Counted from the first letter of the stretch, positions 6,691 through 64,000 are shown. The stretch: DNA of 64,000 bases from Candidatus Heimdallarchaeota archaeon (GCA_030149205.1 JASBSB010000004.1:34058-98057); one strand, 5' to 3'. The notes: generated from the letters alone by a model not told the origin. Program-made: numbers and translations.

Positions 6691-7183
6691 GAATAAAGGT
6701 AAGAAGTGTAGCTAGGTTGGGAAATAGCCGTCTCACATCCTTGTGATACTCAGTTAATGTTGAATCATGGGTGAAATAAAGCTTGAGAAGAGCAACGAAG
6801 AGCAGATGGTCTTGCTGTGTCTTTAGATAAGTTATTGTGTCCTTTTCCAGTGGAAGTTTGTACTCAATTGATCCAGGTATAGTTATAACCATAATAAACA
6901 AGAAGCTGTAATAGAAGGGGTCATCAATGTAACCTTGAAATATCACAAGCATAACAAATATACCCCCAAATCCAAAAAATGAATAAATTAATGCATTGTT
7001 ATAGTACATAAATCGACCACGTCCTCTTTTAAGGTTTAAGTATGACTCAGAAAAAGAGTTATACTTCTGTAGCCCAATAAATCTTGAGAGCCTAAATTTC
7101 ATATAGCTGAGGCTATAAAACATAAGAATGACATAGATTGTATACAGCAATGAAATCAATATCCTGAGTAGCACTAAACTCAC
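6641..7183 (-). CDS. hypothetical multi-pass membrane protein (paralogue of 60012..60539)
   Basis: 180 aa. Aligns with 60012..60539 (SESYLNLKRGRGRF vs LESYLTLKRRNGRSF, similar TM layout). Starts 2 nt after the stop of 7185..7448, the same spacing as 60010/60012. Confidence 0.55.
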   Translation of the reverse strand: MSLVLLRILISLLYTIYVILMFYSLSYMKFRLSRFIGLQKYNSFSESYLNLKRGRGRFMYYNNALIYSFFGFGGIFVMLVIFQGYIDDPFYYSFLFIMVITIPGSIEYKLPLEKDTITYLKTQQDHLLFVALLKLYFTHDSTLTEYHKDVRRLFPNLATLLTFILGIASLLYLYYVRTFL

Positions 7184-7184
7184 C

Positions 7185-7448
7185 CTATTTCACCCTATTT
7201 TGTGCATCAGCCCAGAGGTATGTGTTAAGGAAGTGGTACCCAGTCAAAGAGATACCATACAGACACTTTATTGGTCCCATTCCATATGCAGATGGTTTCT
7301 CCTCTATATGTTCCTTTCCTACCTCAATCAGTGATTTTATTAATTTAACTGGACTTATAGAACCACCCAGCTTTGTCAACAAGCTGGGGAAGAGTGTAAC
7401 CGCAGCAAAACTATGAAGGAACACATATCCTTTATTACACCATATCAT
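7185..7448 (-). CDS. small family-related protein with soluble C-terminal domain (degenerate CxHQ N-terminus)
   Basis: 87 aa. The N-terminus MIWCNKGYVFLHSFAA resembles a decayed YVYPCLHQESF. The C-terminus EEKPSAYGMGPIKCLYGISLTGYHFLNTYLWADAQNRVK is reproduced in the truncated ORF 59888..60010. Confidence 0.45.
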   Translation of the reverse strand: MIWCNKGYVFLHSFAAVTLFPSLLTKLGGSISPVKLIKSLIEVGKEHIEEKPSAYGMGPIKCLYGISLTGYHFLNTYLWADAQNRVK

Positions 7449-13204: not shown

Positions 13205-13708
13205 TTACAAAAATAATGAGATGTAGTAATACCCAAATTTTATTTTCTCTATAGCTGATTCCTTGATATAATATTGCTGTTTCTTGGTATTTATATCTTG
13301 ATAGGCTTTATTTTGTTCATTGACTAGATCTACTGCATTTTTATATTCCACATTTCTATAAGCTAATCCATCTTTGCCCAAATGACTAAACCGATATTCC
13401 TTCACCCTTTTATTAATTTCATTAAGGCCTTTTTCCATCTTAGATATTTGGTTTTGGTCGTTTTGAAGCATCAGTTTAGGAAGGCGAAGTGCGAAAAAGT
13501 TCACCAGTATAGATTTTATACCTCTGGCAATTGGCAGGAGTATATTGTTTGTGGTGAACTCCCCGACAGCCTTTATCCCGACGACGGTGACGCCGTCCTT
13601 GATGGTCTGCTGGTTGATAGACCTGACAATGAAGTCGCTGGGTATTCCAATTTCAAAGGATTCCTGATGAAGGCAAGCATACACATATCTGATATACATT
13701 AAAACCAT
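13205..13708 (-). CDS. CxHQ-family hypervariable protein, short form (type-D, soluble coiled-coil-like C-terminus)
   Basis: 167 aa. MVLMYIRYVYACLHQESFEIGIPSDFIVRSINQQTIKDGVTVVGIKAVGEF, then a unique lysine/glutamate-rich C-terminus. Junction DNA motif at 13581-13609. Confidence 0.6.
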   Translation of the reverse strand: MVLMYIRYVYACLHQESFEIGIPSDFIVRSINQQTIKDGVTVVGIKAVGEFTTNNILLPIARGIKSILVNFFALRLPKLMLQNDQNQISKMEKGLNEINKRVKEYRFSHLGKDGLAYRNVEYKNAVDLVNEQNKAYQDINTKKQQYYIKESAIEKIKFGYYYISLFL

Positions 13709-13846: not shown

Positions 13847-14614
13847 CTATGTCTCTATAGGAGAGCTATTCTTGTCAAGAGGAAAGTCAATTTTAAGCGT
13901 AAACAAATCAATTAAAACTAAATTAAGTAACACCCATGTCTTCGCAACCACATGGCCATTTACCAATGGAATTGAGTTTGTGATGCTTTCAAAAAATGTG
14001 AAGAGTAGCAAATTTCCAAGATAGTTGAGTGTCAGAAAACCAAGGATACCTAATTTCCAAATCGTAAAGTCAGTCAATGCTATATTCTTGATCATATTTA
14101 CAAAGTATAACACCATAATCAGAAACATCCCTAAAATTCTTTGAAGAATCCAGTCACCAGCAAAGAAACTCAAAAAATACAATGAGACTATGGTGATTAC
14201 CCTAAAAAAGTAGAAACCAATACTATTTTTCTCAAGGGTCTTGGGAGATATTATAAATTTAAACTTAAATTTCGGGTCATCTGAATTGGAATCTGTGAAA
14301 AACATGAGATATAATACCAGTAACATGAAAATTAAGTCTCTACTTACTATACTACTGATCAGTATTAGCACACCTATGACATAAAAACCCTGGTAGTTTT
14401 CCTTGGGGTCAGGCTCAATTATCCCTCGAAGTGATATCCGACTAATTATTTTGGAAATAACAAGCAAGATCACCATTCCTCCAAGGAGACCGAAACCTTC
14501 CCAACTTGAAAATGTTACATTATTAAGGAGCTGAAAGTAAAGCACTATTGGAAACAGCAGTACCATTATCTGCCTCAGAACAAAATTTACAATAGGGATG
14601 GGTTTTCGTTTCAT
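13847..14614 (-). CDS. NFxLRQ-family multi-pass membrane protein (immunity-like partner)
   Basis: 255 aa. Homologous to 20652..21431, 61845..62657 and partial 1..269 (NFVLRQIMVLLFPIVLYFQL..SWEGFGLLGGM). Start overlaps the stop of 14611..14922 by 4 nt. Confidence 0.55.
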   Translation of the reverse strand: MKRKPIPIVNFVLRQIMVLLFPIVLYFQLLNNVTFSSWEGFGLLGGMVILLVISKIISRISLRGIIEPDPKENYQGFYVIGVLILISSIVSRDLIFMLLVLYLMFFTDSNSDDPKFKFKFIISPKTLEKNSIGFYFFRVITIVSLYFLSFFAGDWILQRILGMFLIMVLYFVNMIKNIALTDFTIWKLGILGFLTLNYLGNLLLFTFFESITNSIPLVNGHVVAKTWVLLNLVLIDLFTLKIDFPLDKNSSPIET

Positions 14615-14922
14615 ATTCTAACTCCGTCGACGAAGCTGGTGACGCCCCTTTTGATCTCTGTGAGTGCCTTGTCTGTCAAACTCCACAGTTGGTTCACCGC
14701 ATCCACCAGGGTCCAGGTGGGATGCCCGATCAGCCCCATCACAGTTTTCCACAGGTTCTGCTGCCAGCTACCTGTCACATCAACGCACATTATAATCAAC
14801 CTGCTAATTGTGTGACTATCAAAGACCTGTAAAAGTGTAGATTTCATCATGTCTTCACCAATGTAGTTAGAGGATGAAAGCCTCAGATGAGGGTGATGTT
14901 GACAACTAGTTATTTCGTCCAT
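14611..14922 (-). CDS. CxHQ-family long-form N-terminal stub (truncated right after the junction motif)
   Basis: 103 aa. MDEITSCQHH...MCVDVTGSWQQNLW...GVTSFVDGVRI, then a stop immediately after the conserved junction. No C-terminal module, yet still coupled to an NFxLRQ partner gene. Confidence 0.5.
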   Translation of the reverse strand: MDEITSCQHHPHLRLSSSNYIGEDMMKSTLLQVFDSHTISRLIIMCVDVTGSWQQNLWKTVMGLIGHPTWTLVDAVNQLWSLTDKALTEIKRGVTSFVDGVRI

Positions 14923-17202: not shown

Positions 17203-17460
17203 TCACAACTGTAGCACCTGTGTTGTAAGGGTGAGGAAAATCATTTCCGGTATTTTCACAATAATGGTATGAACTCCTTCCCCTATGGGTCTGATGATAT
17301 TGTTGGAATTGAACTCACCAGCGTATTTCACCCGCTCGTTAAAGTTGGTGATACAGTCCTTGATGGTCTGCCGAAATACATCTGTCATTGAAAAACGAGT
17401 GAATGATCCAGCATCAAATGAATCCTGATGGAAACAGATGTACACATATCTATCATCCAT
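17203..17460 (-). CDS. CxHQ-family hypervariable protein, short form (type-E, 85 aa)
   Basis: MDDRYVYICFHQDSFDAGSF...QTIKDCITNFNERVKYAGEF. Junction DNA motif at 17348-17370. Confidence 0.5.
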   Translation of the reverse strand: MDDRYVYICFHQDSFDAGSFTRFSMTDVFRQTIKDCITNFNERVKYAGEFNSNNIIRPIGEGVHTIIVKIPEMIFLTLTTQVLQL

Positions 17461-19088: not shown

Positions 19089-19856
19089 CTAATGACTCTT
19101 TCTATCACTAGAAAATACAAATTCGTTGGTGGTTGATGACCCTTCATCATTTTTAGAAGGTGAGTGATTGACATCCTCTGAAGCATTTGAATGTTGAATT
19201 GAGAACTGAAATGGGTAACTTCGTAAGATAGGAACTCCATTAATCTCAGAGTTAAAAAATGGCTCAGCGAGGATTTTAAGCAAAAGTAGTAATGCAAACA
19301 ACATGATTGTGAGTATCAAAAGTGTGTTCGTTGTAAGATAGACACTTAATTTTTCATTTTGCATCCTCCATCCAGAAGAGAGTAATAGAGATAAAAGCAT
19401 ATAAATTCCGGATAACAAAGAAGAGACATATAACCCCTGTCTCTTCTCCAAGTTGGATCGCAAATTGGTTTTAACTTTAATTACCTTGTAGATGACACCA
19501 GTTCCGATAAGGAACGGACAAAATATTGCAAGATAAACAGTGTAAATATTTATCCATTCTGCATAGGTACTAAAAAGCAGAAATTCGAATGGATAAAGCA
19601 GGAACAACAACAAAACGCTGATCTTTAGCAGTATTTGGTCTGGTAGCTCGATGAGTGTATAGAAAACATAGAAATTAGAAAAGTTAGATAATCCCCACCA
19701 CATTAGAATGAGAATGCCCTGTAAAGTTAGAGCTACTATCCCTTGGTGCCTTACTGCATAAAATAATTCCCAAGTCAAGCTGTATACGAAAACCACAGTT
19801 AGAGCAGACAGTGTTAGGACAATGTTCTGTTTGTAATATTTAAGAAACGCTTTCAT
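19089..19856 (-). CDS. hypothetical multi-pass membrane protein, partner of 19867..20238
   Basis: 255 aa with about 7 TM helices. Lies 10 nt downstream of the short-form gene. Confidence 0.5.
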   Translation of the reverse strand: MKAFLKYYKQNIVLTLSALTVVFVYSLTWELFYAVRHQGIVALTLQGILILMWWGLSNFSNFYVFYTLIELPDQILLKISVLLLFLLYPFEFLLFSTYAEWINIYTVYLAIFCPFLIGTGVIYKVIKVKTNLRSNLEKRQGLYVSSLLSGIYMLLSLLLSSGWRMQNEKLSVYLTTNTLLILTIMLFALLLLLKILAEPFFNSEINGVPILRSYPFQFSIQHSNASEDVNHSPSKNDEGSSTTNEFVFSSDRKSH

Positions 19857-19866
19857 GAATACACCT

Positions 19867-20238
19867 TTAAAATGATTGGTTGTCTATCATCGCATACATC
19901 ACTGCTAAAACAACATGGTAAAATGTGTAAAACATCATGTATGTATTAGACTGAATCAAGATATTCCCTGAGGAATCCACAGTCACACTTACTGAAATTA
20001 TTGTTTCAACAATCTGTAACAGGCCAAGTATTGCTGAGCGATACACATTCATCATTTCTTCTGCAATAGGCAGGGGTGTATTGTTGGCTATGACCTCCCC
20101 AGCAGCCTTGATCCCGTCGACGGTGACGTCTCCCCTGATGGTCTGCAGGGCTGTGAAAGTGAAGCTACTGTGTGTTCCAGTTTCATAGGATTCCTGATGA
20201 AGGCAAGGGTACACATACCTGATATACATTAAAACCAT
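19867..20238 (-). CDS. CxHQ-family hypervariable protein, short form (type-B C-terminal module)
   Basis: 123 aa. MVLMYIRYVYPCLHQESYETGTHS...QTIRGDVTVDGIKAAGEV...PIAEEMMNVYRSAILGLLQIVETIISVSVTVDSSGNILIQSNT. The 3' part is about 98% identical at DNA level to the partial plus-strand copy at 63850-63960. Confidence 0.6.
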   Translation of the reverse strand: MVLMYIRYVYPCLHQESYETGTHSSFTFTALQTIRGDVTVDGIKAAGEVIANNTPLPIAEEMMNVYRSAILGLLQIVETIISVSVTVDSSGNILIQSNTYMMFYTFYHVVLAVMYAMIDNQSF

Positions 20239-20347
20239 TTAAGTTTTTCTCACATTTAAGATAGGTTCACCCCTCTCCCATCATCACTGGAGAGTCTTTT
20301 TATAAAAATGTTCTAACATAGTGCAAGTAGAACAATGTTTAGGTGAA
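20239..20347. repeat. about 105-bp direct repeat, copy 2 (copy 1 at 6580..6690), including a remnant 3' end of a 6641..7183-type gene
   Basis: Near-identical to 6580-6690. Its distal part retains the last about 45 nt of a 6641..7183-like ORF, but no such gene follows. Confidence 0.65.
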
Positions 20348-20651: not shown

Positions 20652-21431
20652 TTACACAGCTGAGACAACTTTTATTTTGCAAAATGAACAAATCTTGACT
20701 GTGAGCCAGTCAAGATACGCAGCAAAAACCAATATTCCAGCCTTAGAAACTACAAATACTACTAAAACACCTGATCCTCTGTCCGAGATGAAATTTTGTC
20801 CCAGAAATGCCAGTGCTATTAAGTTTTCAACAAAAATTAATGCTATAACACCATAAGCGATTAAGTCCCAACTTCCCAAATCAGATAACAGTTTATCCTG
20901 AAAAATGTTAACAAAAAATAGGAGAATAAACAGAAGCAATGCAGTTATCTTTACTGTATCCCATTCATTGTCTAGGAAACTCAAAACAAAAAGAGAAATT
21001 AAGATAATCAATCGAGCAAAAAACAACCTATATTTTCTTACCTCAAATTTTTTCGATTCAGAGTTAAACACCTTTCTAAGCACAGGATCATCAGAAAAAA
21101 TATCTGAGGCAATTATGGCATAGATAGCTAGTATCATCAAAAATAAATTTCTACTAATTATTACACCCAAAAACCCTAGAATTGAATAGCTGTAATATAC
21201 CAAATAGTCTTTATCTCTTTCAGTAATTTTATGGAGAAGTATTCGACTAATTGTTTTAGAAATTATTACTAAGATCATCATTCCTCCTAGGATACCAAAC
21301 CCCTCCCAGCTTAGGAAAGAGACCCTGTTTTGGAGTTGAATGTAAAGCATTATTGGAAACAGCAACATAATTACTTGTCGCAGAAAAAAATTCGTTAGAC
21401 GCAAATTTTCTGGTTCCATAATATCACACAA
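20652..21431 (-). CDS. NFxLRQ-family multi-pass membrane protein (immunity-like partner of 21424..23268)
   Basis: 259 aa. Homologous to 13847..14614 and 61845..62657. Start overlaps the stop of 21424..23268 by 8 nt. Confidence 0.55.
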   Translation of the reverse strand: MCDIMEPENLRLTNFFLRQVIMLLFPIMLYIQLQNRVSFLSWEGFGILGGMMILVIISKTISRILLHKITERDKDYLVYYSYSILGFLGVIISRNLFLMILAIYAIIASDIFSDDPVLRKVFNSESKKFEVRKYRLFFARLIILISLFVLSFLDNEWDTVKITALLLFILLFFVNIFQDKLLSDLGSWDLIAYGVIALIFVENLIALAFLGQNFISDRGSGVLVVFVVSKAGILVFAAYLDWLTVKICSFCKIKVVSAV

Positions 21432-23268
21432 CTGATGAAAACAGTTTTAGCACCTCTTTGAATATAAAAAACAAAAAGGGTAAAACCACAAGAGAGTACC
21501 CTTTTTTGCTAAAGAAGGTTGCTGCTGCCTGAGGGTCTCCTTTTCCAAATTTATCCAGCACTGCATAGCTGACGATCTCTCCACTTGCTACGCCTGCGAG
21601 CCAGAAGTACATCGTTGGTGTCAGGGGATTATCAATCACATTGTCCTTAAAATCGTTGTAGCTCGAGATGAAAATATATAAGAGTTTAGCTAAACTCGTC
21701 TTAGCTGTTAATTTGTTCTCTTTTGCGAACTCTTCTAAGACCTTTTTGAATCCATTTTTACCCTCCTTGACTATCGTTTTGACTGCCTTTCCAGCATTAT
21801 ACACTGTATATGAGAATGGTAAAACAAAGATCAGCGCAGAAAGCCATCCAACCATAAGTTTGTCGAATTCATCAAGGTCTTCCTTTGTCCATGGGTTAAG
21901 GTTTACGTCAGCAAAGAGATACCTGTTCCTCTCTCTGAATATATTTATGAAAGTCAGTAATAGTACGGCTTGTGATGCAATAAAGAGCCCTAGGGACGTA
22001 AGGGTGGCACCCAAGGGGCCCAACACAGGTACAGCCCCATTGGTCTTTTGTGATAACGCACTGGCAATATAGGCTGCATTAAGCAGAGAGAGCCCTATCC
22101 CCTGTGCCCAAACAAGGGAATCAGCACTTGACCCAGCGGGAGAAAGGGTCTCACTGCCGATGATCAGCTCTAAAATGGTCTGGAATAGATCAACTGTGGT
22201 TGTTTTGCCCCCAACCACCATTTTCATTGTTGATACACCAACAAGCTCTATGGTTATATCTAACACCTTGTTATCGATGTATGAGGTGAGACGGAGGCCA
22301 TTTGGGATTAGCACGGTGTTATATCCGGGAGAGGTCTCACCAAGTGTTAAAAACAACGCATTAACGACATTTCGAAAGATAGAGATCAGACCCTCCATTA
22401 TAGGCTTAATCACCTTGTTGACGAAGAACTCTCCGGCGAATTTCACCCCATCGACGAAGCTGGTGACGCCGTCCTTGATGGTCTGCAGGGCTGTGGTACT
22501 CATTGTCCAAAGCTCACTGACAAAGTCCACCAGGGTCGCCCCAGGCTTCCCAATGATGCTCATCACAGTGTTCCACAGGTTCTGCTGCCAGCTCCCCGCA
22601 ACATCGATGTAGGTGTCATAGATGTGGTCAGCAAAGACCAGGATGGCAACCTTGGCGACAGCCACATAGTCCAGGCCTGTATTGGGGTCATACCTCAGAT
22701 TGTTTGGATGGTCAAGGTTCAGCTCAGTGATCAAGGCGTCGTCCTTCAGGATCACGTTTGCCAGCCGGTTCTGCTGGGGCTCCTCCTTGTACCAGTTGAT
22801 GATGCGCTCCACTGAGCCAAAGCCATAGTCGTTGATCTTGCCCCAGACGAAGTCAAAGAGCTTGTACTCCCTGTAGATGACCACATTTCCAATCTTGATG
22901 TCATAGCCAAGCCAGCTGTTCAGGATGCTCTTGGTGTTGGCCCTCAGGCTGTTGAAGTCCTGCACCACCTTCTCCAGCAGCAGAGAGACATCAAAGACCC
23001 GGTCCTTGGTGGGTTGTGTCTCACTGGCAGTCTTCATGGAGGCACGCGCAGTTGGTGGCACCTGTGCCGCCTGCTTCTCATTGTCCGGGCTCCAGCTGAA
23101 GCCTGTCCCCTTGATCAGGGCTGTCAGCACCGAGTGGTTGGCAGCCAACTGGTGACGTGGGGCAAACTCAAGGGTTTCCTGATGTTTTAGGATTTGAGCT
23201 CTGTATCGATTTAACCCGAGCTCAAAGGGTGTAGAATTGCCGCATTGAACTCTGTATCTTTGATGCAT
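21424..23268 (-). CDS. CxHQ-family protein, full-length archetype (GC-rich 230-aa N-terminal extension + conserved core + type-A C-terminal module)
   Basis: 614 aa. Its N-terminus (RYRVQCG..FELG and ILKHQETLEF..HQLAANHS) contains degenerate versions of both the short-form and the long-form N-terminal motifs. The core IDVAGSWQQNLW...GKPGATLVDFVSELWTMSTTALQTIKDGVTSFVDGVKFAGEF is DNA-identical in stretches to 4041..4979. The C-terminal 330 aa is paralogous to 273..1400 and 60719..61834. 22600-23268 is about 55% GC against about 33% background. Confidence 0.65.
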   Translation of the reverse strand: MHQRYRVQCGNSTPFELGLNRYRAQILKHQETLEFAPRHQLAANHSVLTALIKGTGFSWSPDNEKQAAQVPPTARASMKTASETQPTKDRVFDVSLLLEKVVQDFNSLRANTKSILNSWLGYDIKIGNVVIYREYKLFDFVWGKINDYGFGSVERIINWYKEEPQQNRLANVILKDDALITELNLDHPNNLRYDPNTGLDYVAVAKVAILVFADHIYDTYIDVAGSWQQNLWNTVMSIIGKPGATLVDFVSELWTMSTTALQTIKDGVTSFVDGVKFAGEFFVNKVIKPIMEGLISIFRNVVNALFLTLGETSPGYNTVLIPNGLRLTSYIDNKVLDITIELVGVSTMKMVVGGKTTTVDLFQTILELIIGSETLSPAGSSADSLVWAQGIGLSLLNAAYIASALSQKTNGAVPVLGPLGATLTSLGLFIASQAVLLLTFINIFRERNRYLFADVNLNPWTKEDLDEFDKLMVGWLSALIFVLPFSYTVYNAGKAVKTIVKEGKNGFKKVLEEFAKENKLTAKTSLAKLLYIFISSYNDFKDNVIDNPLTPTMYFWLAGVASGEIVSYAVLDKFGKGDPQAAATFFSKKGYSLVVLPFLFFIFKEVLKLFSSVV

Positions 23269-23406: not shown

Positions 23407-24309
23407 GTGGCGTTTGACAGCAGCTTCAAGAACATCCTGAAAAGACTTTTTGCAGGGCTTGGGGTGACGGTAATCACCGAGAGTGAGGTTCCGGTGGCAA
23501 ACCAGCGTATCGATTTTCTCATCCCTAACAACCCTCGTCTGAAAGGCACCCCCTTTTTTCATGCACGTGAGCTGGTAATTGGAGAGTTCAAGAGTGAGCG
23601 AGACAGGCTCTTCCCTGGGGATCTGTTGATGCTGATCAGCAAGGCTTACAGCCACCTGGCAGTCAGCTATGGCTATGCTGGCAAGAGAAGCGAGCTCCCG
23701 AAAAGCGCACTCAATCAGGTGAGCTGTGTCCTGATCCTGGGTGGCAACAAGTCAATTGAGACGCTCTCACCGCTTGGGCTGGACTTTCAGGAGCTGGAGG
23801 CAGGTGTGCATGAGTATCAGGGACTGCTACACCTTTTGGTGATAGAGCTTGACAAGATCAGGGAGATGGGGGATATGGATCTGCTGCTGCTCTTTGCCAG
23901 TAAACAGAGAAGAAGACAGGTGATTCAGGATGCTCTCACACAAAACGACAGGTTTATTAGCTCTGTTAGTTATTTGTTATATAAGAAGGAGTGGCAAGAG
24001 ATGTCAACAGACCCCGAATCAATCAGTATTAAGGAGGCAGTGGAATTCTTGGGTGTGGCCAGGGTGATCAATGAGGTGGGGCTGGAGCGAGTGATCCAGG
24101 AGGTTGGGATCAACAGGGTGGTTGACGCAGTGGGACTGGAGAAGGTGGTCGAAGCAGTGGGACTGGAGAAGGTGGTTGACGCAGTGGGATTGGAGAAGGT
24201 GGTCGATGCAGTGGGATTGGAGAAACTGGTCAAAAGCATTGATCCCAAGAAAATTAGCCCTGAGGTCAAGCAAGCTCTTCAGGATTTGTTGAATAAAATA
24301 AATAGCTAA
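23407..24309 (+). CDS. PD-(D/E)XK-fold nuclease family protein (Rpn/YhgA-like putative recombination nuclease) with C-terminal tandem decapeptide repeats
   Basis: 300 aa. RIDFLI...ELVIGEFKSE fits a D...(D/E)xK nuclease motif. The C-terminus has VVDAVGLEK repeated 4-5 times. The gene is GC-rich relative to the genome and divergently oriented from 21424..23268. Confidence 0.5.
   Translation: MAFDSSFKNILKRLFAGLGVTVITESEVPVANQRIDFLIPNNPRLKGTPFFHARELVIGEFKSERDRLFPGDLLMLISKAYSHLAVSYGYAGKRSELPKSALNQVSCVLILGGNKSIETLSPLGLDFQELEAGVHEYQGLLHLLVIELDKIREMGDMDLLLLFASKQRRRQVIQDALTQNDRFISSVSYLLYKKEWQEMSTDPESISIKEAVEFLGVARVINEVGLERVIQEVGINRVVDAVGLEKVVEAVGLEKVVDAVGLEKVVDAVGLEKLVKSIDPKKISPEVKQALQDLLNKINS
24058..24233 (+). 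repeat. 30-bp tandem repeat (about 4 perfect + 2 degenerate units) inside the nuclease gene
   Basis: GTGGTTGACGCAGTGGGACTGGAGAAGGTG repeated head-to-tail, encoding (AVGLEKVVDA)n. It is open in several frames, which explains the overlapping track ORFs on both strands. Confidence 0.8.
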
Positions 24310-29580: not shown

Positions 29581-30924
29581 ATGGATGAGGCAAATGATAC
29601 TGTAAACGTCTCAAGTATCTATACAGGTACTCCTCGTGATATTCCAGTCTATCCCAAGAAACATCGATTTAAATTTCACACTGCAACACTCGTTCAATCA
29701 TTGATGTCCAGTGGGGATAACCTGGGTGGTTCATTCATATTTCTTTATGCGATATCAAGAGGATCAGTAGGTGTCTTACAGGGGTTAATTACTGCTATTA
29801 GAGAATTGGGGTCTGCTTTGTTTCAACCAATTTGGGGGAATCTTTCAGATAAATTTGGAAGAAGACCGTTTTTAGTATTAGGATTCCTTGTTCAAGCTTT
29901 ATTTTGGGGGGTGTTTATTCCTTTATCTGTAACACCTCTACAAATCTTGTTGGTTCTTTTGTTTCAAACCCTGTTAGGAACTATGGTGATACCATCATTT
30001 AATGGATGGTTAGGTGACTTTACCGAGAGAACAACCAGAGGTAGAATCATTGGTAAAGTTGGCATGATTTCTTCATGGATGGCTCTATTTGCTCTATTGC
30101 TTGTCTCAATAATAATGCAAATCCAAGATCCAAACAGGTTGTATGTTAGTACATATTCGCTTGCCTTTATTGTGGGTGCTGGATTCTATGTTCTTGCAGC
30201 TATTGTCTCATTGTTTTTACCAGAGAGAGAGCGAAAGAGCCCTCAATCAGTATTTACAGATTCATTGATGTCATCGAGTGGACAGTCTATTCAATCAAAA
30301 TATTTTATCAGGTTTAAAATCAAATTCGATAGTTATATAGCTGGATTCAACCCTGAATTCAAGAGATTAGTGATAGTAGAAGGAATATTCAAACTAGGAT
30401 GGGCGATAGCCTGGCCTCTATTTCCATATGCAACCTTAGACGCAACTAATGGCTGGATAGAGATTGCTGTGCTTCAAATTACTATTGGAATATCATTAGG
30501 TATCTCTCAGATGATAGGTGGAACCATATCAGATAAGATTGGGAGAAAGCGGGTTATAATTTGGTCTCGTCTATCACTCATTTTTCCCCCGCTACTCGCT
30601 GGATTAGCCATGCAATATCAAAATATTTGGTTTTTAATCTTCTCCAATTTGCTGGTTGGGTTAACTCTAGGAGCTGGAACTATCGGACTGAACGCCATGA
30701 TTTTAGATATAGCCCCTGAGGGAAGAGAAGGGAAATACTTTAGCAATTTTTTGATGTTGCAGGGATTGATCTCATTCTCAGCTTCTTTTATTATGGGGTT
30801 AATATTAAACCTGTTTGACAGTACTGCCCCTAACTTTTATGGGATAATCGCTTGGTTGCTGATATCAGTGTCATTTCTGAGGTTCTTGCTCTGGTTTGTG
30901 TACTTCTTCCTCCCAGACCTTTAG
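29581..30924 (+). CDS. MFS-type transporter
   Basis: 447 aa with about 12 TM helices. The GxLaDrxGrR-like motif WGNLSDKFGRRPF and a second half-repeat SDKIGRKR are typical of the major facilitator superfamily. Confidence 0.7.
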   Translation: MDEANDTVNVSSIYTGTPRDIPVYPKKHRFKFHTATLVQSLMSSGDNLGGSFIFLYAISRGSVGVLQGLITAIRELGSALFQPIWGNLSDKFGRRPFLVLGFLVQALFWGVFIPLSVTPLQILLVLLFQTLLGTMVIPSFNGWLGDFTERTTRGRIIGKVGMISSWMALFALLLVSIIMQIQDPNRLYVSTYSLAFIVGAGFYVLAAIVSLFLPERERKSPQSVFTDSLMSSSGQSIQSKYFIRFKIKFDSYIAGFNPEFKRLVIVEGIFKLGWAIAWPLFPYATLDATNGWIEIAVLQITIGISLGISQMIGGTISDKIGRKRVIIWSRLSLIFPPLLAGLAMQYQNIWFLIFSNLLVGLTLGAGTIGLNAMILDIAPEGREGKYFSNFLMLQGLISFSASFIMGLILNLFDSTAPNFYGIIAWLLISVSFLRFLLWFVYFFLPDL

Positions 30925-53776: not shown

Positions 53777-54211
53777 ATGATCAAGGTACCCATCACCCAT
53801 AAAACTCTGGTGCGAGCTCCTCAGAAAGATGTCTTTGATGCGATGACCAAACCTCACCTGCTTAATCAATGGTTTACTGAGGGAACCACTGCTGACCTAA
53901 TAAACGGTGGTGAGCTTATTCTCAGGTGGAAGGATTGGGGTCCAGATAAAGTTACAACAGAAGCTACTTGTCCTATTGTTACCTATCAACCTAGCTCTAA
54001 GTTTGTGTTTAAATGGTGGGAAGACCATTACACAACAGTTTCAATTCATTTCCAAAAACTCAGTGATTCTGAAACTCTCGTCCTATTATCTGAGGAGGGG
54101 TATGAAGACAATGAGGAGGGTTGGAGAAGATGTCTAGAGTGTGCCACAGGTTGGGGAGAGGCAATTACTCTCCTCAAGATATTTGTTGAACATGGTATCT
54201 CTTACAAATGA
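53777..54211 (+). CDS. SRPBCC-superfamily protein (AHSA1/activator-of-Hsp90-ATPase-like)
   Basis: 144 aa. The pattern AP.e.V..A.T.P..L..W...G (VRAPQKDVFDAMTKPHLLNQWFTEG) is typical of the AHSA1/polyketide-cyclase-like fold. Confidence 0.65.
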   Translation: MIKVPITHKTLVRAPQKDVFDAMTKPHLLNQWFTEGTTADLINGGELILRWKDWGPDKVTTEATCPIVTYQPSSKFVFKWWEDHYTTVSIHFQKLSDSETLVLLSEEGYEDNEEGWRRCLECATGWGEAITLLKIFVEHGISYK

Positions 54212-54236
54212 ATATTCACGTATGTCTTCCAAAAAA

Positions 54237-54350
54237 TTACCAAACATCTACCAAACCTTTACCAAACATCTACCAAGTATCTACCAAGCATCTATCAAAC
54301 ATCTATCAACAATTCCCAATCATTTATCAAATATCCATCAAACATTTGCC
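54237..54350. repeat. degenerate 11-12-bp tandem repeat array (TACCAAACATC-like units, about 9 copies), intergenic
   Basis: ACCAAACATCTACCAAACCTTTACCAAACATCTACCAAGTATCTACCAAGCATCTATCAAACATCTATCAACAATTCCCAATCATTTATCAAATATCCATCAAACATTTGCC. The track ORFs crossing it are frame artefacts. Confidence 0.6.
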
Positions 54351-54527
54351 AAGCTTATTCCGAACAACTTTCAAAGATTTTCCTCGGGTTTTTCAAAATT
54401 ATCATTTTCATATCAAATTTCCATTTAGGTATATTAGTCGTAAATTATATGCTAATAATAACAAATTGTATCTGACAATTGTTTACCTTACTCCCTCAAA
54501 GTTCAAAAGTCATGAGAAGCTTAATCG

Positions 54528-55655
54528 TTGATGGAAACAGAGGATATCCTGTATCAGTTTCAGATCATTATCGGGAGCATCTGGTTCTTGCTTTACTTTG
54601 AGATTCTGTTGCACTTGTTCTCCATGATATTTGTCCTCAACTTCACAACTGCCGGGATTAATTCCACTGTATTCTTGGTTCTTCTGACCCTTACTGGTAT
54701 CAGTATCCCAGTGGTTCAAAGAAAAATCTTTCAATCAAAAAATACCTTGTATTTTACCATAGTGGTTGCTGGAGTTTCAGGTATGTTAACTGTTGTTCCT
54801 AATGCACTGTTCTCGATAATCATCTCCTTAGGTTTTCTCTATTTCAGCCTTCCATTGATCTTGATGATTGCAAATCATGTCAACAGACGTTTTGTCTTTT
54901 CAATCTCATATGCATTAGTTTTGGAATATTTCTTTCAATCAATGTTTGAGGGCATTGGGTTCTTTGGAACTGTCGTTAATAAAACCATACTTGCATTTCT
55001 GGTTCTGTTTTGGACTGCTTTGTCACTTTACTTCTTAAACAAGTATTATCATGACTACATAGAATCACCAAGTGCTCAGACAAATAACTTTACCATGGTG
55101 ATGATTTTTGGCTATTTTTTTATTACAACCCTAGAATCACCATATCTTATCGCATCCTGGATTAACCCCCACAGTATTTTTGGTCTTAACGGAACCAACA
55201 ATTTCTTCTATGTCGTAAAACTTTCCCTGATCCTATTTTTTGCATTGGGTGCTGTGTTGTTGGATTTATTGACCTATCGAGAGGATTTTTCTCTGTGGTT
55301 TCTAAGAGGAAGATATACACCTGTTATTTTATCTGGGGCCTTTCTTGTAGGATTGGCAGATCTGATGTGGTTGGATCTTATCACCCCCATTGATATTTTT
55401 ATTCTTGTCTATGTGTCATTGACCTTTATCCGGGAAAGTGGTCATGCGTACAGACAAAATGGGCACAATAAGCTTATAATTCTGCAAATCATACAAACAT
55501 TGTTGATATTTCTTTATGCAACAGCTGGGAATTGGGCATTTGTTCCAGGTGTCTTAAAGCCCATAGTCAGAAACAACGCACCCCTATTCATTTTTTTGAC
55601 AGGTGTTGTAGTTGTAATTACATATTTAGTATCAAGAGGTGCTGATATTACATGA
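54528..55655 (+). CDS. hypothetical multi-pass membrane protein
   Basis: 375 aa with about 10 TM helices. Overlaps the next gene by 4 nt. Confidence 0.45.
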   Translation: MMETEDILYQFQIIIGSIWFLLYFEILLHLFSMIFVLNFTTAGINSTVFLVLLTLTGISIPVVQRKIFQSKNTLYFTIVVAGVSGMLTVVPNALFSIIISLGFLYFSLPLILMIANHVNRRFVFSISYALVLEYFFQSMFEGIGFFGTVVNKTILAFLVLFWTALSLYFLNKYYHDYIESPSAQTNNFTMVMIFGYFFITTLESPYLIASWINPHSIFGLNGTNNFFYVVKLSLILFFALGAVLLDLLTYREDFSLWFLRGRYTPVILSGAFLVGLADLMWLDLITPIDIFILVYVSLTFIRESGHAYRQNGHNKLIILQIIQTLLIFLYATAGNWAFVPGVLKPIVRNNAPLFIFLTGVVVVITYLVSRGADIT

Positions 55656-59378: not shown

Positions 59379-59887
59379 AGGGCATATAAGAAGATTATCA
59401 GAGTCAATCGGATTGCAAGCAATTGATGGAATAAATCGCTTATTGCATATTTCGTATAAATATAGAGATGGTAAGATGCAAGAAAGGTAAAGAATGTGAG
59501 TAAGATATTAATAGATAGAAAAGGTGACAATATTAATTGCCAGACAGAAAACCCCAACTTTAAGTATTAGACCTCCGTAGTTAATTTCGCTTTTGGGATG
59601 GATATCCGGAATTATTAGATTTCTCTTTAAATTTCAAAATTTCGTTCTTAAAACTCAGTTTGCGACATCTAAAATTTTTTTTATTCATTGATTTTAAATT
59701 TTAGAGTGTTGAAAATAATCTCTGTCAATCTAGATTCGGGAGGTTAGGCATGTTTTTGATAGTCTCTATAGACTATAGTAATCTATAACAATATGGACTC
59801 AGATAGCTTACTTCCCTTTTATCAAGATACTAAATTTTTATTTATAGTACTAAAAGATTATAATTTATTCTTGACAATCATTAATAT

Positions 59888-60010
59888 ATGCAGGAAAAAC
59901 CATCAGTTTATGAAATGGGACTAATAAAGTACCTGTATTGTATCTCTTTGACTGAGTACCACTTCCTCAATACATATCTATGGGCAGATGCTCAAACTAA
60001 GGTGACCTGA
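59888..60010 (+). pseudogene. truncated copy of the 7185..7448-type small protein (40 aa)
   Basis: MQEKPSVYEMGLIKYLYCISLTEYHFLNTYLWADAQTKVT aligns with the C-terminal 38 aa of 7185..7448. The next gene starts 2 nt later, as at 7183/7185. Confidence 0.45.
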
Positions 60011-60011
60011 T

Positions 60012-60539
60012 TTGAGTATTGGTCAAATTGCGGGAATAATCTATTTTACATTTTGGTCTGTGTTTGTCTTCTACCTCTTAACCTATGTAAAATTCCAATT
60101 GTCCAGCCTTTTCAGACTTCAAGACACGAGGTCTTTCCTAGAATCATATTTAACTTTAAAACGAAGAAATGGTAGATCTTTTGCTTATATCAACTTTTCT
60201 GCAAATCTGCTATTTGGGTTTATAGGTTTTTTTATACTATTTGGAAGAATCATTGAGCTATTTTACAACCTCTATTATTACATTCTGATGTTTGGGGTGA
60301 CAGTGATTTCACTCATGGCTGTTGAAAGCAGACTTCCCTTAAGCGCAGACACTCGTGAATATATCATGAGTCAACGTGTTCCTGTAATCTCCCTTTTCTC
60401 CCTTTTTTTCACCAGGAATGGTGAAAAGTTAAAATACAGGGCGGATGTATGGAAGCTCATTCCAATCAAAGAATTAATTGGGTATTATAGCCTTGCAATT
60501 TTAGGGTTAATTTTTTATCAATTGTTTTATATCCCTTGA
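60012..60539 (+). CDS. hypothetical multi-pass membrane protein (paralogue of 6641..7183)
   Basis: 175 aa with TTG start. Shares the conserved LESYLTLKRRNGRSF block and TM layout with 6641..7183. Confidence 0.55.
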   Translation: MSIGQIAGIIYFTFWSVFVFYLLTYVKFQLSSLFRLQDTRSFLESYLTLKRRNGRSFAYINFSANLLFGFIGFFILFGRIIELFYNLYYYILMFGVTVISLMAVESRLPLSADTREYIMSQRVPVISLFSLFFTRNGEKLKYRADVWKLIPIKELIGYYSLAILGLIFYQLFYIP

Positions 60540-60589
60540 GGAAAGTTGATTTTTATCTAGATTCATCATACGGGGATGGGGGGAAAAAA

Positions 60590-60718
60590 AAAATTATTCT
60601 GGTAAAAAATGTTATAGTTCAGACATACAGGGTGGCTTACAAGTAGTTTTTGAGACTTAGGATAATAAAGAAAGATAAGATTTTTTGTTAAGATATGATT
60701 TTTGTGCGATAAACTTAA
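60590..60718 (+). repeat. conserved about 130-bp upstream element of plus-strand short-form genes, copy 1 (copy 2 at 63560..63699)
   Basis: CTGGTAAAAAATGTTATAGTTCAGACATACAGGGTG..TTACAAGTAGTTTTTGAGACTTAGGATAATAAAGAAAG...TTTTGTGCGATAAACTTAAATG, about 85% identical to 63560-63699. Confidence 0.6.
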
Positions 60719-61834
60719 ATGAGATTGATAGATAACAGATATGTGTATCTTTGCCTTCATCAGGATTCATTTACAATTAATACAGGTTACAAATACGCTA
60801 TTTACATCTATTCTCAGACCATCAAGGACGGCGTCACCGTAGATGGGGTGAAAGCAGCCGGGGAGTTCATCGCCACCAACATCATCAGACCCATAGTGGA
60901 GGGCTTGGCAACCGTGTTTCGAAGCATCCTCACCGCTATGTTTCTCACACTTGGTGAGACCTCGTCAGGATACCAGACGACGAAAACAGCCACTGGATTT
61001 ATCTTTAAATCATTTATTGACAATAAGGAGGTAAGTGTATCAGTGACTGTGGACAGCTCAAATCAACTAATGTTTACTGTTGGTATCAAATCATTCACTA
61101 TAGATTTGTTTAAGCTCATATTAAATTCAATAATACCTTTTGAAACCCTTTCTCCCGAAAGTGCGATTAATGGTATAATAACAGCCACAGTTTTCGAGAA
61201 CATTTTTACAAATATCGCATTTGTTGCTATGGATAAATCTAAAGAAGCTGGTGCCGGATCAATGGGAATAGGAGCGGCGGTTGCCTTAACAATTTCATTA
61301 ATGTCAATGTTATATGGTTCAGCAACATTTTTAGGAAATTTTTTAGCTCGATGGCACAATAGAAATAAATTCAGTGGAGAGGAATTAAAACAATATGATC
61401 ATCTATTTAAGTCATGGATTTCTTTATATAAGGTTACACTCACACTCTCAATAACCTTATATTATTTGGGTAGAAATTTATATAAACTCCGCAACATTAT
61501 GAAACAGGAAGGCCAAACTTTGACTTCAAGTATTTCTAAAGTTTTAAAAGAAAACTTTGAAATTCAAGGCTACACAAGTCCTGCAATTGCGTCAGGTTTA
61601 TTTTTTGTAGCATTAAGTACAATAGTTATGGATTTTACGGAAGTCATATTACTTCAACCAACAATGACGATGTGGATAGCTTTCTTAATCGTATTAGCTT
61701 CAGAAATAACTACATACGGTCTTCTTGATTTGGGGAAAACTCCTCTGTATAACTTAAAAATTTTTATATCTGCAATTGTATTTCCAAATACCTTATATAG
61801 GTTAGAGTTACTTATTTTGGATAATTTTGTATAG
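60719..61834 (+). CDS. CxHQ-family hypervariable protein, short form with type-A C-terminal module
   Basis: 371 aa. MRLIDNRYVYLCLHQDSF...SQTIKDGVTVDGVKAAGEFIATNIIRPIVEGL, then a 4-TM C-terminal domain paralogous to 273..1400 and the C-terminus of 21424..23268, but strongly diverged. Confidence 0.65.
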   Translation: MRLIDNRYVYLCLHQDSFTINTGYKYAIYIYSQTIKDGVTVDGVKAAGEFIATNIIRPIVEGLATVFRSILTAMFLTLGETSSGYQTTKTATGFIFKSFIDNKEVSVSVTVDSSNQLMFTVGIKSFTIDLFKLILNSIIPFETLSPESAINGIITATVFENIFTNIAFVAMDKSKEAGAGSMGIGAAVALTISLMSMLYGSATFLGNFLARWHNRNKFSGEELKQYDHLFKSWISLYKVTLTLSITLYYLGRNLYKLRNIMKQEGQTLTSSISKVLKENFEIQGYTSPAIASGLFFVALSTIVMDFTEVILLQPTMTMWIAFLIVLASEITTYGLLDLGKTPLYNLKIFISAIVFPNTLYRLELLILDNFV

Positions 61835-61844
61835 GTGACCTATT

Positions 61845-62657
61845 ATGAAACTTATTTCAATTCTTGGTTTAAATTTTTTCCTAAGACAATCCTTAGTTTT
61901 AACTCTGCTAAGTTTTTTGATCTTTACTCATTTCATAGCTTATCCAGTTAAAATTTACTATTTTTACGAAATTTTAACATTTTCGGGTATCTATTTAATG
62001 AGTGTAATGTTTTCAATTATTGGTCAATACCAACTCAAAGATACTAACCATGGAATAATTTTTGTTAATAAAGAAAGGTGGAAAGTCTTGACACCTATGA
62101 TGATTTTTTGGTTTGTTTTAATATTTAATGTGTTTTCAAACATGATGTATCAGGCAAATACAATATTCCGACACCTTTTTGCTATAATGACTTTTTTTTT
62201 ACTATTGCATTATTTTGAAACCGTCATTGAAGGGTCACTATATCCTCAGTTAATTAAAGAAAGCAGATCCAAATCAGCAACAAAAGTTAACCGTTTCTTG
62301 TTCTTATTGAGGTTCTCACTAATTTTTACTATATTTGCATTGATTCTTACAAAAAATTCTATTGAGATTCTCCTTATTATTACTACTGTATTATTTGGGG
62401 GTTCACTGGTGTCAAGTGCCTTGTTTAACTTAAAAACAAAGTCCTCCTTAAAAATAACTATCGAGGTGATTCATGCAATTTTCCTCATGGACTTCCTTCT
62501 AGTTTTTATCGATTACCTGATTAGTCCTGATTCTAATATATTTATATTGGGATTAACTTTTCTTCAGTTGATATTTATATATTTATTAAGTGAACTTCCA
62601 TACTTATATCAAGTTCCTCAATTGATTTTACAATCATTCATAATAAATGATAAATGA
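61845..62657 (+). CDS. NFxLRQ-family multi-pass membrane protein (immunity-like partner of 60719..61834)
   Basis: 270 aa. MKLISILGLNFFLRQSLVLTLLSF is homologous to 13847..14614 and 20652..21431. Lies 10 nt downstream of the family gene. Confidence 0.55.
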   Translation: MKLISILGLNFFLRQSLVLTLLSFLIFTHFIAYPVKIYYFYEILTFSGIYLMSVMFSIIGQYQLKDTNHGIIFVNKERWKVLTPMMIFWFVLIFNVFSNMMYQANTIFRHLFAIMTFFLLLHYFETVIEGSLYPQLIKESRSKSATKVNRFLFLLRFSLIFTIFALILTKNSIEILLIITTVLFGGSLVSSALFNLKTKSSLKITIEVIHAIFLMDFLLVFIDYLISPDSNIFILGLTFLQLIFIYLLSELPYLYQVPQLILQSFIINDK

Positions 62658-62868
62658 GGGTGGCATCCTAGCAATACTCTTGACTCTGACACCTTATGTT
62701 GGATCACTTGCATATCTCATCTCAGAGGCAGTGGGTTCTGCTGGTTTAACGGCATTAAAGGCAATCTATAAAACATATCAGATGGGAACTGTATTAATGG
62801 TAGCAAGTATAACACATCTGATACTTGCCTCTCTCTTTGCTTTAAAAGGTGGGAATAGGTTCTTGTGA
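62647..62868 (+). CDS. small hydrophobic protein
   Basis: 73 aa with two TM segments. Overlaps both neighbours. Confidence 0.3.
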   Translation: MINEGGILAILLTLTPYVGSLAYLISEAVGSAGLTALKAIYKTYQMGTVLMVASITHLILASLFALKGGNRFL

Positions 62869-63488
62869 ATAGGCTGGTGAATAACATGAAGCTTAAAAAT
62901 AGATTTAAACTGGATGATGCTGTATATTTGATCACACTTCTATCAGTCCTTATCTTGCTTTATTCTCGCTTGATTGATAAAATAGGACTTATCGTAACAG
63001 CTCTAGCAGTGTTCCTTTATCCCCAGCGTTTCTTTGTGATAGCTATTTATCAACTATTCAGGGAACATAGAACCAAAAAATTAGTCTATAACCTTTTGGG
63101 ACTAATACTAATTTTTTCTGCCCTATCACTCTTACTAACTATTTCTGTTAAAACAAACTCGTTTTTGATCTTAACCCTCACATTCTGTAGTTTTTATGTC
63201 CTAAAGGCAATTTTTTTCTACAGGGTTTATGATAGAGACCTCAAAGATAGGAAATACCGTAAAACAGTTACAGGGGCGGTATTCAGGGTATCCACACCGT
63301 ATTATTTTCTTGTGTTCTTTTTAGTAGCAGTGATTCTTCAGCCTGTGAGTCCTTTAGATCCCAGTGGATTCACATTTTTGATGCTTGTAATGGTCATTTC
63401 AATTTTCTTTAATGGCTTCTGTAATTGCGATGATATCGATCATGAACTAAAGAGCATTTGGCCAAAAGGTATCCCAACTTGTTGTTAG
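62865..63488 (+). CDS. hypothetical multi-pass membrane protein
   Basis: 207 aa with about 6 TM helices. Confidence 0.45.
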   Translation: MNRLVNNMKLKNRFKLDDAVYLITLLSVLILLYSRLIDKIGLIVTALAVFLYPQRFFVIAIYQLFREHRTKKLVYNLLGLILIFSALSLLLTISVKTNSFLILTLTFCSFYVLKAIFFYRVYDRDLKDRKYRKTVTGAVFRVSTPYYFLVFFLVAVILQPVSPLDPSGFTFLMLVMVISIFFNGFCNCDDIDHELKSIWPKGIPTCC

Positions 63489-63559
63489 GCAAGCTGTATA
63501 TGTACGTTGAAAAATATTAATTTCTATAACCGATGTATGATTAGGGTCGAAGAAGTAAA

Positions 63560-63699
63560 TTGATGTGATAACATTAATTCTGGTAAGAAATGTTATAGTT
63601 CAGACATACAGAGTGAATTACAAGTAGTTTTTGAGATTGAGGATAATAAAGCAAGATTAGAAGCTATGTTAAGAGATAAATTTTGTGCGATAAACTTAA
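63560..63699 (+). repeat. conserved upstream element of plus-strand short-form genes, copy 2
   Basis: See 60590..60718. Confidence 0.6.
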
Positions 63700-63999
63700 A
63701 TGGTTTTAATGTATATCAGGTATGTGTACCCTTGCCTTCATCAGGAATCTTATGAAACTGGAACACACAGCGACTTCATTGTCAGGTCTATCAACCAACA
63801 GACCATCAGGGACGGCGTCACAGTCTACGAGGTGAGGTATGCTGGAGAGTTTATCGTCAACATACCCATGCCTATTGCAGAAGAAATGATGAATGTGTAT
63901 CGCTCAGCAATACTTGGTCTGCTACAGATTGTTGAAACAATAATTTCAGTAAGTGTGACTGTGGATTCCTCAGGGAATATCTTGATTCAGTCTAATACA
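63700..63999 (+). CDS. CxHQ-family hypervariable protein, short form, mosaic copy (partial, runs off window end)
   Basis: MVLMYIRYVYPCLHQESYETGTHSDFIVRSINQQTIRDGVTVYEV...PIAEEMMNVYRSAILGLLQIVETIISVSVTVDSSGNILIQSNT. The first 24 aa match 19867..20238, residues 25-52 match the 6145..6579/13205..13708 type, and the rest is DNA-near-identical to 19867..20238. Confidence 0.6.
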   Translation, partial: MVLMYIRYVYPCLHQESYETGTHSDFIVRSINQQTIRDGVTVYEVRYAGEFIVNIPMPIAEEMMNVYRSAILGLLQIVETIISVSVTVDSSGNILIQSNT

Positions 64000-64000
64000 T

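Follow-up and report, generated by a model that had tools for sequence, protein, structure and literature searches.

The DNA analyzed here is a stretch of 64,000 nucleotides (nt) from a Candidatus Heimdallarchaeota archaeon (referred to below as the window; guanine + cytosine [GC] content 36%). It ends in a group of plus-strand genes (59883-64000) that we interpret as the second cassette array of a rare archaeal polymorphic family. A left array of the same family occupies positions 1-23268 on the minus strand, and approx. 36 kb of core DNA lie between the two. All positions are window coordinates; L-numbers designate other contigs and P-numbers designate database proteins.

An earlier, sequence-only reading of the window had proposed that its right end carries a second, inverted array of the family on the opposite strand. 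All-against-all BLASTP of the open reading frames (ORFs) of the window, combined with a motif scan, bears this out. Family members were found at 60719 and 63700 on the plus strand and at 273, 4041, 6145, 10521, 13205, 14611, 17203, ~19056, 19867 and 21424 on the minus strand, giving at least 12 truncated copies across both arrays, and a 26-nt leader motif occurs 6 times (0 expected by chance). The right-array ORFs listed in that reading are all present at the coordinates given there. It was also correct in stating that the arrays flank a housekeeping core and are transcribed away from it, and an independent Logan contig (L001, equivalent to 32.9-63.7 kb of the window) confirmed that core and right array are joined as in the window. 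The left array extends for at least 2.1 kb beyond position 1 on contig L002, which contains more type-A fragments and partners.

The core encodes a fumarase, a SerB-like phosphatase, transporters of the major facilitator superfamily (MFS) and the ATP-binding cassette (ABC) type, TldD/PmbA, CNNM, PAC2, RadA and a chemoreceptor. Among genomic matches, TldD was most similar to a Candidatus Heimdallarchaeota metagenome-assembled genome (58%), with various archaea next, and RadA reached the archaeal equivalog score, which indicates that the host chromosome is archaeal, probably of the Asgard (Heimdall) group. A Leptospira-like bacterium, suggested at first by GC content and motifs, was rejected on these grounds and because the promoters are of the BRE (B recognition element)/TATA type. 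No tRNA gene and no match to an Rfam family was found within the 64-kb window.

Cassettes of the right array

All ORFs of the right array are located on the plus strand, and all but the first, a short stub, are predicted from hydropathy to encode membrane proteins. The cassettes follow a common plan, in which (i) a 5′ element of approx. 65 nt is followed by (ii) a 5′-truncated, C-terminal copy of a giant protein gene and (iii) one to three partner genes encoding polytopic membrane proteins.

In the case of the type-A cassette, the 5′ element (60703-60765) consists of a B recognition element (BRE)/TATA-like box, GATAAACTTAAAT, 21 nt, GTG-TAT and the code for the peptide CLHQ. The family gene (60719..61834; 371 amino acids, aa) comprises this leader, a conserved region with the motif ETLS and a hydrophobic multi-helix C-terminus. 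Its assignment to the same type as the genes 273..1400 and 21424..23268, already made in the sequence-only reading, was confirmed by identities of 31.5% and 34%, respectively, over more than 320 aa (E ~1e-40). An AlphaFold2 model of the protein had a mean confidence (pLDDT) of 50 and was unusable.

Three partner genes, with transmembrane (TM) helices predicted from hydropathy, complete this cassette. The first (61845..62657; 270 aa) encodes an 8-TM protein with the N-terminal motif NFFLRQ, the second (62647..62868; 73 aa) a small 2-TM protein, and the third (62865..63488; 207 aa) a 6-TM protein. Because the second gene overlaps both of its neighbours, it is probably part of the same operon; neither BLASTP against the window nor jackhmmer found a homologue of it. 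The third has no homologue within the arrays, and its match to UbiA was below threshold (19.6 bits against a cutoff of 34.2).

The 5′ element of the next cassette (63684-63746) includes a 26-nt exact match to the copies at 6533 and 20192, and the short-form family gene that follows (63700..64000) ends at the window edge. Both right-array leaders are preceded by the same 114-nt spacer (60589-60702, repeated directly at 63570-63683 with 84% identity), which is absent from the left array and points to a local duplication within the right array.

The array begins with a segment (59883-60005) that is 83% identical, over 123 nt, to the reverse complement of 7190-7312. This homology sets in abruptly at 59883, with no similarity upstream, which indicates that the first cassette of the right array is 5′-truncated at the array edge. 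The segment contains the stub ORF (59888..60010; 40 aa), and this is followed by a second ORF (60012..60539; 175 aa) with approximately six predicted TM helices. A TATA-like sequence, ATTATAAT, lies within 59858-59887, 22 nt 5′ of the stub ATG, and the truncated cassette, including the 6-TM ORF, may therefore still be transcribed.

The consensus of the 5′ element is GGATAAAyTTAwAT, 21 nt, GT(G/A) and the code for PC[LM]HQxS[YF]E. It precedes the long, mid and short forms of the family gene alike, wherever their homology to full-length proteins starts, and in all three forms the box GATAAAyTTAwAT is placed 21 nt before GTG/GTAC. BRE/TATA-type promoters also occur in the core, where many genes (24850-59378) have AAAnTTTAWAT boxes ending 18-22 nt before the start codon. 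Since the box-to-start spacing is the same, the element has the geometry of an archaeal BRE/TATA promoter, which would give a leaderless or near-leaderless mRNA, and the boxes of the core genes suggest that transcripts of this archaeon mostly have no leader or a very short one. The short forms are likely to start at an in-frame GTG (63724 and 60743).

Conservation of the promoter-like element extends to at least 10 copies, without any conserved dyad symmetry. Changes between copies are often synonymous (TAC/TAT, TGC/TGT, CTT/CTC) and preserve the peptide RYVYxC[LF]HQ, which indicates that the leader peptide is translated.

The conserved, recombining 5′ parts of the family genes (e.g. 4560-4979, 20060-20238 and 60719-60980) have a GC content of 0.42-0.52 in most copies and of 0.39 in 273..1400, compared with 0.31-0.41 in the variable C-termini, 0.28-0.33 in the partner genes and 0.366 in the core. 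GC-biased gene conversion, amino-acid composition or foreign origin could be responsible. Several short ORFs in alternative frames or on the antisense strand (6444..6557, 13573..13686, 20088..20216, 63722..63835, 22160..22612 and 4669..4854) seem to be conserved from cassette to cassette; we rejected them as genes and attribute their apparent conservation to that of the underlying DNA in the leader and the GC-rich conserved region.

Exchange between the inverted arrays

According to the sequence-only reading, the first three genes of the right array (59888..60010, 60012..60539 and 60719..61834) mirror a minus-strand module of the left array (7185..7448, 6641..7183 and 6145..6579), and this symmetry was ascribed to one ancient inverted duplication followed by cassette replacement. 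For the first two ORFs the specific colinearity is real. The stub is 74% identical to residues 48-86 of the 87-aa product of 7185..7448, i.e. to its C-terminal 39 aa, and the 6-TM ORF shares 34% identity over 143 aa with 6641..7183 (E = 2e-15); the latter two find each other reciprocally in jackhmmer (~1e-80). The third pair, 60719 and 6145..6579, has in common only the generic N-terminal 72 aa (37.5%), and specific colinearity therefore covers two ORFs and not three genes. Similarity confined to the generic N-terminal motif had been named in that reading as the result that would speak against it; this is what we found for the third gene, and not for the stub and the 6-TM ORF.

In both arrays the two colinear ORFs are separated by an insertion of 10 nt at the same site. 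In the left array it forms part of a perfect tandem duplication (AATAGGGTGA twice, 7180-7199), and in the right array it reads CCTGATTTGA (60006-60015). The insertion supplies a stop codon and a new-frame GTG or TTG start in both copies; on the right these are the TGA of the stub and the TTG of the 6-TM ORF, which is in the +1 frame. The "unusual 2-nt gap" reported between stub and partner is accordingly mirrored in both arrays, but it amounts to a single base between stop and start and is due to this insertion.

Deletion of the 10 nt in silico produced a single ORF of 264 aa (left) or 212 aa (right). "Stub" and "partner" are therefore one gene, with a conserved N-terminal part and a variable membrane C-terminal part, that has been split in two, the right stub representing the C-terminal portion of the N-terminal half. 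A search for an unsplit homologue of the fused gene returned only the window's own protein. Directly after the insertion the DNA identity between the copies drops from 83% to ~48%. The 6-TM frame has remained open in both copies at only 34% aa identity, which makes its translation almost certain, through either stop-start coupling or a frameshift, and the insertion site may be a slippage-prone on/off switch or a programmed frameshift site. The left copy of the split gene (6641..7448, minus strand; 87-aa ORF, 10-nt duplication and 180-aa membrane ORF) has its own degenerate 5′ element and is therefore itself a cassette.

The second link between the arrays is the short-form gene at 63700, a paralogue of 19867..20238 with 80% aa identity. 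Positions 63697-63756 are ~100% identical at the nt level to the copy at 20238, and 63874-64000 are ~98% identical to the reverse complement of 19941-20067 (97% over 19941-20083 in the repeat analysis). Between these tracts, 63763-63822 is 87-97% identical to the copies at 6579 and 13708 instead of the one at 20238. The gene at 63700 is thus a mosaic of three left-array copies.

The left counterpart of this cassette (19089..20254, minus strand) consists of the 123-aa short form and a 255-aa partner. A search of 5.8 billion proteins with the partner (19089..19856) revealed exactly one paralogue, P0073, 58% identical and encoded by the same 271-kb NCBI contig as well as by L041, a 2-kb Logan contig (1-2026) from the same sample. 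L041 starts 12 nt past the position equivalent to window base 64000 and contains the last 20 codons of a 19867-like gene, the gene for P0073 and a new 370-aa family gene (leader SYVYTCVHQ, new C-terminus). Because L041 joins the end of a 19867-like gene to P0073, the next gene of the right array is very probably the cognate partner, as the cassette model predicts, and the array probably runs on for 2 kb or more past the window edge, the placement of the contig being deduced from repeat-boundary logic. The arrays would hence extend outside the window on both sides, a point that the sequence-only reading had left to be checked. There is no colinearity beyond the 123-aa cassette, as the 370-aa gene of L041 is no closer to the gene at ~19056 than to other copies.

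The similarity between the arrays ranges from patches of 97-100% nt identity (63697-63756 and 63874-64000 against 19941-20254) to 34% aa identity (6-TM ORF). This range and the mosaic gene at 63700 indicate that exchange between the arrays took place at different times and is still ongoing. The shared unit is the single cassette. Two of these are specifically common to both arrays, namely the split gene (87-aa and 6-TM ORFs) and the 123-aa form together with the 255-aa partner; they are flanked by different genes in the two arrays, and the succession of cassettes shows no colinearity above the level of the single cassette. Type A followed by the 123-aa short form does recur in both arrays, but the chance of this is about 1 in 4-5. 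These observations indicate that cassettes were duplicated and converted one by one between the arrays, and they do not indicate one ancient inverted block duplication, so that a single inverted duplication of a three-gene module is not sustained; "cassette replacement" is nevertheless a fair description of the outcome.

Within the left array, a higher-order repeat of ~7 kb is apparent between 4600 and 23000 (repeat families spaced 6530-7129 nt), which suggests that units of a mid form and a short form were tandemly duplicated before their C-termini diverged.

The family, its relatives and their partners

The family is previously undescribed, very rare and archaeal. Neither the family nor the partner proteins gave a match above threshold in Pfam, NCBIfam or PADLOC, and the family had no match in the PDB. 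A word-indexed search of the 5.8 billion proteins found one foreign relative only, and an exhaustive hidden Markov model (HMM) search of 1.84 billion representative proteins only 70 matches. About eight of these are long (including proteins of 2661, 1988, 1199 and 939 aa); most of the others have 300-470 aa, start inside the conserved region and appear to be orphan-like copies. Scans with the family alignment found nothing in genome contigs or viral contigs, and in metagenomes only L040, which is 99.9% identical to L003.

The longest relative, P0004 (2661 aa), has an N-terminal signal-peptide-like sequence (recognized by eye) and Laminin_G_3/pentaxin domains, and P0014 (1988 aa) has LamG domains. 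A conserved region of ~300 aa ending in a near-invariant ETL[S/G] is common to the long relatives and to the 614-aa long form of the window, and the C-termini that follow this motif are hydrophobic and, as judged from alignments, mutually unrelated. In L003/L040 an orphan copy follows the full-length gene, and P0025 has a leader like those of the window.

The 614-aa long form (21424..23268) and its NFFLRQ partner (20652..21431) constitute the head of the left array (20652..23268, minus strand). The long form corresponds to the C-terminal part only of the 940-2661-aa relatives in other genomes, and tblastn revealed no remnant of the missing N-terminal part upstream, so that both window arrays consist solely of truncated copies. 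Fragments or stubs are found at 14611..14922, 17203..17460 and 59888..60010, and at 5460..5834 of L002. A GC-rich island (22000-24300; ~50% against 36% for the window) spans the conserved part of the long form and a divergent ORF of 300 aa (23407..24309), which contains a 27-nt tandem repeat (4.3 copies, 24117-24231) and has no match in any family library; a guess that it encodes an Rpn/PD-(D/E)XK nuclease is supported by none of these libraries and was rejected.

Downstream of every family gene are one to three genes for membrane proteins, and the type of C-terminus appears to track the type of partner. Behind each of the type-A genes (273, 21424 and 60719) and behind the type-A fragment of L002 lies a partner with an NF/NLxLR-type start (NFFLRQ, NFYLRT, NLYIRS). 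The same kind of partner also follows the truncated stub at 14611. The split 87-aa gene is paired with homologous membrane ORFs in both arrays, and the 123-aa form with partners that are 58% identical.

The loci of the relatives adjoin integrases and toxin-antitoxin genes, surroundings which are typical of variable islands. In three of the four loci a tyrosine recombinase gene, convergent with the locus, lies immediately 3′ of the family gene and its partners. These recombinases (L003 8839-10318, L037 18725-20174 and L039 8141-8695) are orthologues sharing 60-64% identity, a higher degree of conservation than that of the family genes, and two of the three loci also have a conserved neighbour of ~195 aa (45% identical). 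The orphan of L003 and L040 has a promoter-like leader of 81 nt (L003 7100-7180), of which an "empty" second copy (ATG TAA) is found at 8692-8772, adjoining the 3′ end of the integrase gene. Between two partner genes, L039 has a 77-nt duplicate of the integrase 3′ end (6979-7055 against 8140-8216; 73% identical) that may be the scar of a site-specific insertion. No homologue of these integrases was found within the window.

Two further repeats were noted in the core. A partial duplicate of the 3′ end (30603-30929) of an MFS transporter gene (29581..30924) is found 2 kb further downstream (32643-32967; ~90% identity), and ORF 54208..54531 contains an 11-nt tandem repeat, TACCAAACATC, in ~10 copies (54238-54352).

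Possible functions of the arrays

The interpretation that we favour, with a probability of roughly 0.55, is that the region 59883-64000 belongs to a polymorphic system working like a polymorphic toxin/immunity or Ids-type recognition system. The architecture of the arrays, their colinearity at the level of cassettes, the mosaic gene conversion, the geometry of the promoter-like boxes and the rareness of the family are observed, whereas a toxic or recognition function, a protective role of the partners and expression of the cassettes are predictions. The variable C-termini would act as membrane-directed effector or recognition modules, and the membrane proteins encoded downstream would be their cognate protectors or receptors. 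The putative promoter of each cassette would keep the partner genes expressed, and the conserved 5′ segments would serve as homology handles for recombination, by which cassettes would be duplicated, converted and swapped within and between the inverted arrays and, presumably, also into a full-length gene at another genomic site.

Polymorphic toxin systems with orphan cassettes of C-terminal toxin domain (CT) and immunity genes are exemplified by CdiA-CT/CdiI, Rhs and MafB (Zhang et al. 2012, PMC3482391). Like them, the family has full-length relatives with a putative export signal (by eye, P0004) and a LamG adhesion/presentation region (P0004, P0014), a conserved region before the CT and a hypervariable C-terminus, the boundary being marked by ETL[S/G] in a way comparable to the VENN or DPxGL demarcation motifs. 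A small gene lies directly downstream and appears to vary with the CT. Also shared are recombination mosaics and 5′-truncated standalone cassettes that retain a piece of the conserved region. The latter are represented by the 12 or more copies in the window, by the orphan in L003/L040 and by most of the database matches.

Unlike polymorphic toxins, the family is archaeal, has no relative in sequence or fold, and ends in hydrophobic multi-helix C-termini with no recognisable toxin fold; Pfam, NCBIfam, PADLOC and PDB gave no match, and the structural model of 60719 was of the low confidence stated above. The partners are polytopic, with up to eight TM helices, each cassette has a promoter-like box, a start codon and an N-terminal peptide, and the two arrays are inverted around a 36-kb housekeeping core. 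The window contains no secretion-system genes and no full-length gene, its longest member (614 aa) beginning with a cassette leader. As regards contact-dependent inhibition (CdiB/CdiA/CdiI), Pfam scans detected no two-partner secretion (TPS) domain, filamentous haemagglutinin (FHA) repeats, VENN or CdiB, and the host is an archaeon. We have therefore filed the family as toxin-system-like and not as a proven member of this class.

Pore-forming colicins and the CdiA-CT of E. coli EC93 are membrane-acting effectors with membrane immunity proteins. The same holds for the polymorphic Rhs effector Tse5-CT and its membrane immunity protein Tsi5 (PMC10684867). With these systems the cassettes share a hydrophobic C-terminal module and an integral membrane partner encoded directly downstream, although no homology or fold similarity was detected. 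In Proteus mirabilis, the Ids system (IdsD/IdsE) mediates self-recognition and is delivered by a type VI secretion system. It resembles the cassettes in its pairs of variable membrane-associated proteins, with specificity in variable regions of two adjacent genes, and a recognition pair of this kind would account for the membrane nature of both members; the two systems are not homologous, and Ids is not known to have comparable cassette arrays. Heimdallarchaeum aloposons carry tandem genes for proteins of 3,000-6,000 aa, integrate at tRNA genes and have a MinD/ParA gene set (PMC8813620). They are similar to the present locus in combining Asgard-specific giant proteins with features of mobile elements, but we rejected this identity, as the largest ORF of the window has 804 aa and neither a tRNA gene nor the MinD/ParA set is present.

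Several observations weigh against a toxin- or recognition-like function. Scans of Pfam, NCBIfam and PADLOC revealed no toxin, peptidase or nuclease domain and no immunity family, and the hydrophobic-helix C-termini could simply be membrane anchors. No full-length exportable gene is present in the window, and the truncated forms have no signal peptide. Every cassette comes with a promoter-like box and a start codon of its own, in contrast to classical orphan cassettes, which are silent. In both cassettes common to the two arrays, conservation is higher in the CT gene than in the partner. Finally, the link between the right type-A gene and its partner comes down to a short motif. The NFxLRQ signature noted in the sequence-only reading is present in 61845..62657, but the resemblance to the left partners (20652..21431, 13847..14614 and the two on L002) is restricted to the first 19 residues (hhalign against the left-partner profile, P = 0.003; BLASTP, E = 0.04-0.1).

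The absence of any enzymatic or toxin signature from these products, all of them membrane proteins, would also be expected if the arrays were an ordinary lineage-specific expansion, by tandem duplication, of paired membrane proteins such as a transporter, a channel or an anchoring complex, with no role in conflict and with the right array as a dispersed duplicate. The promoter-like box and open frame of every gene, and 6-TM ORFs still open at only 34% identity, fit this explanation as well. We nonetheless consider it unlikely, because the 5′-truncated series (long, mid, short) derives from giant secreted proteins with lectin domains, fragments and stubs occur in the arrays, turnover of the C-termini beyond a fixed motif is complete, and the family is extremely rare, patchy and found in islands with integrases and toxin-antitoxin genes. 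These properties are typical of conflict or recognition loci and not of housekeeping complexes. The stubs, the frameshifting 10-nt split and the missing full-length gene could alternatively be taken as signs that the arrays are decaying pseudogene remnants of a once-functional giant gene locus, with no present function. This is the least probable of the explanations considered, given long open frames in DNA of 34% GC (we estimate that 175 stop-free codons would arise by chance with a probability of ~2e-6), retention of the promoter-like element in at least 10 copies and leader substitutions that preserve the peptide.

In shufflon and related inversion systems (R64 Rci/sfx, Mycoplasma pulmonis vsa/HvsR), a dedicated recombinase encoded at the locus acts on alternative C-terminal or whole-gene cassettes, which are silent, lack promoters and are bounded by short conserved sites inverted relative to an expression site. 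Integrons have an IntI integrase with attI and Pc, and attC sites (imperfect inverted repeats) at the 3′ ends of their cassettes. The cassettes of the window resemble shufflons in their conserved 5′ boundary, in having sets in inverted orientation and in the linkage of a tyrosine recombinase in related genomes (L003, L037, L039). Site-specific shuffling of the shufflon or integron type would make the 5′ element the site at which such an enzyme inserts, excises or inverts cassettes, thereby varying the C-terminal module of a giant surface protein, and the inverted arrays could then also allow flipping of the 36-kb core. The conserved orthologous recombinases of three of the four relatives' loci, the "empty" leader beside the integrase, the integrase 3′-end copy in L039 and the fact that homology between cassettes of the window starts at one sharp point just upstream of the element are all compatible with this mechanism. 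It is made doubtful by the window itself, in which no recombinase homologue is present, cassettes within an array are direct repeats and are not promoterless, and no recurrent, attC-like inverted repeats occur at cassette 3′ ends. The element, of ~65 nt at every cassette 5′ end and inverted between the arrays, has no conserved dyad, and a promoter plus coding leader, with synonymous-type changes preserving the peptide, fully explain it. Moreover, the mosaic tracts lie inside coding regions, as homologous gene conversion would leave them, and the integrases of the relatives could belong to neighbouring integrated elements.

A toxin/immunity-like or recognition system could be extended, speculatively, to a reservoir of a programmable surface self/non-self (kin-recognition or contact-dependent) system, in which a giant lectin-bearing protein would receive its membrane-embedded C-terminal module and polytopic partner from the cassettes, possibly with the help of a tyrosine recombinase acting at the 5′ element. 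If this doubtful proposal is true, recombination between the inverted arrays could flip the 36-kb segment that includes radA.

The significance of the mirrored module is more modest than first supposed, since it is reduced to one split gene and a generic leader in arrays connected by ongoing exchange. The arrays do provide a clean example of cassette-wise gene conversion between inverted archaeal arrays, and of orphan cassettes that bear promoters instead of being silent. They also define a family without known relative, whose layout is that of toxin/immunity systems but whose variable modules are membrane-embedded and accompanied by membrane partners. No prokaryotes are more closely related to eukaryotes than the Asgard archaea, whose mode of life involves tight cell-cell associations. 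Competition and recognition among them are barely known, and the locus described here represents a concrete and experimentally tractable candidate for such a system.

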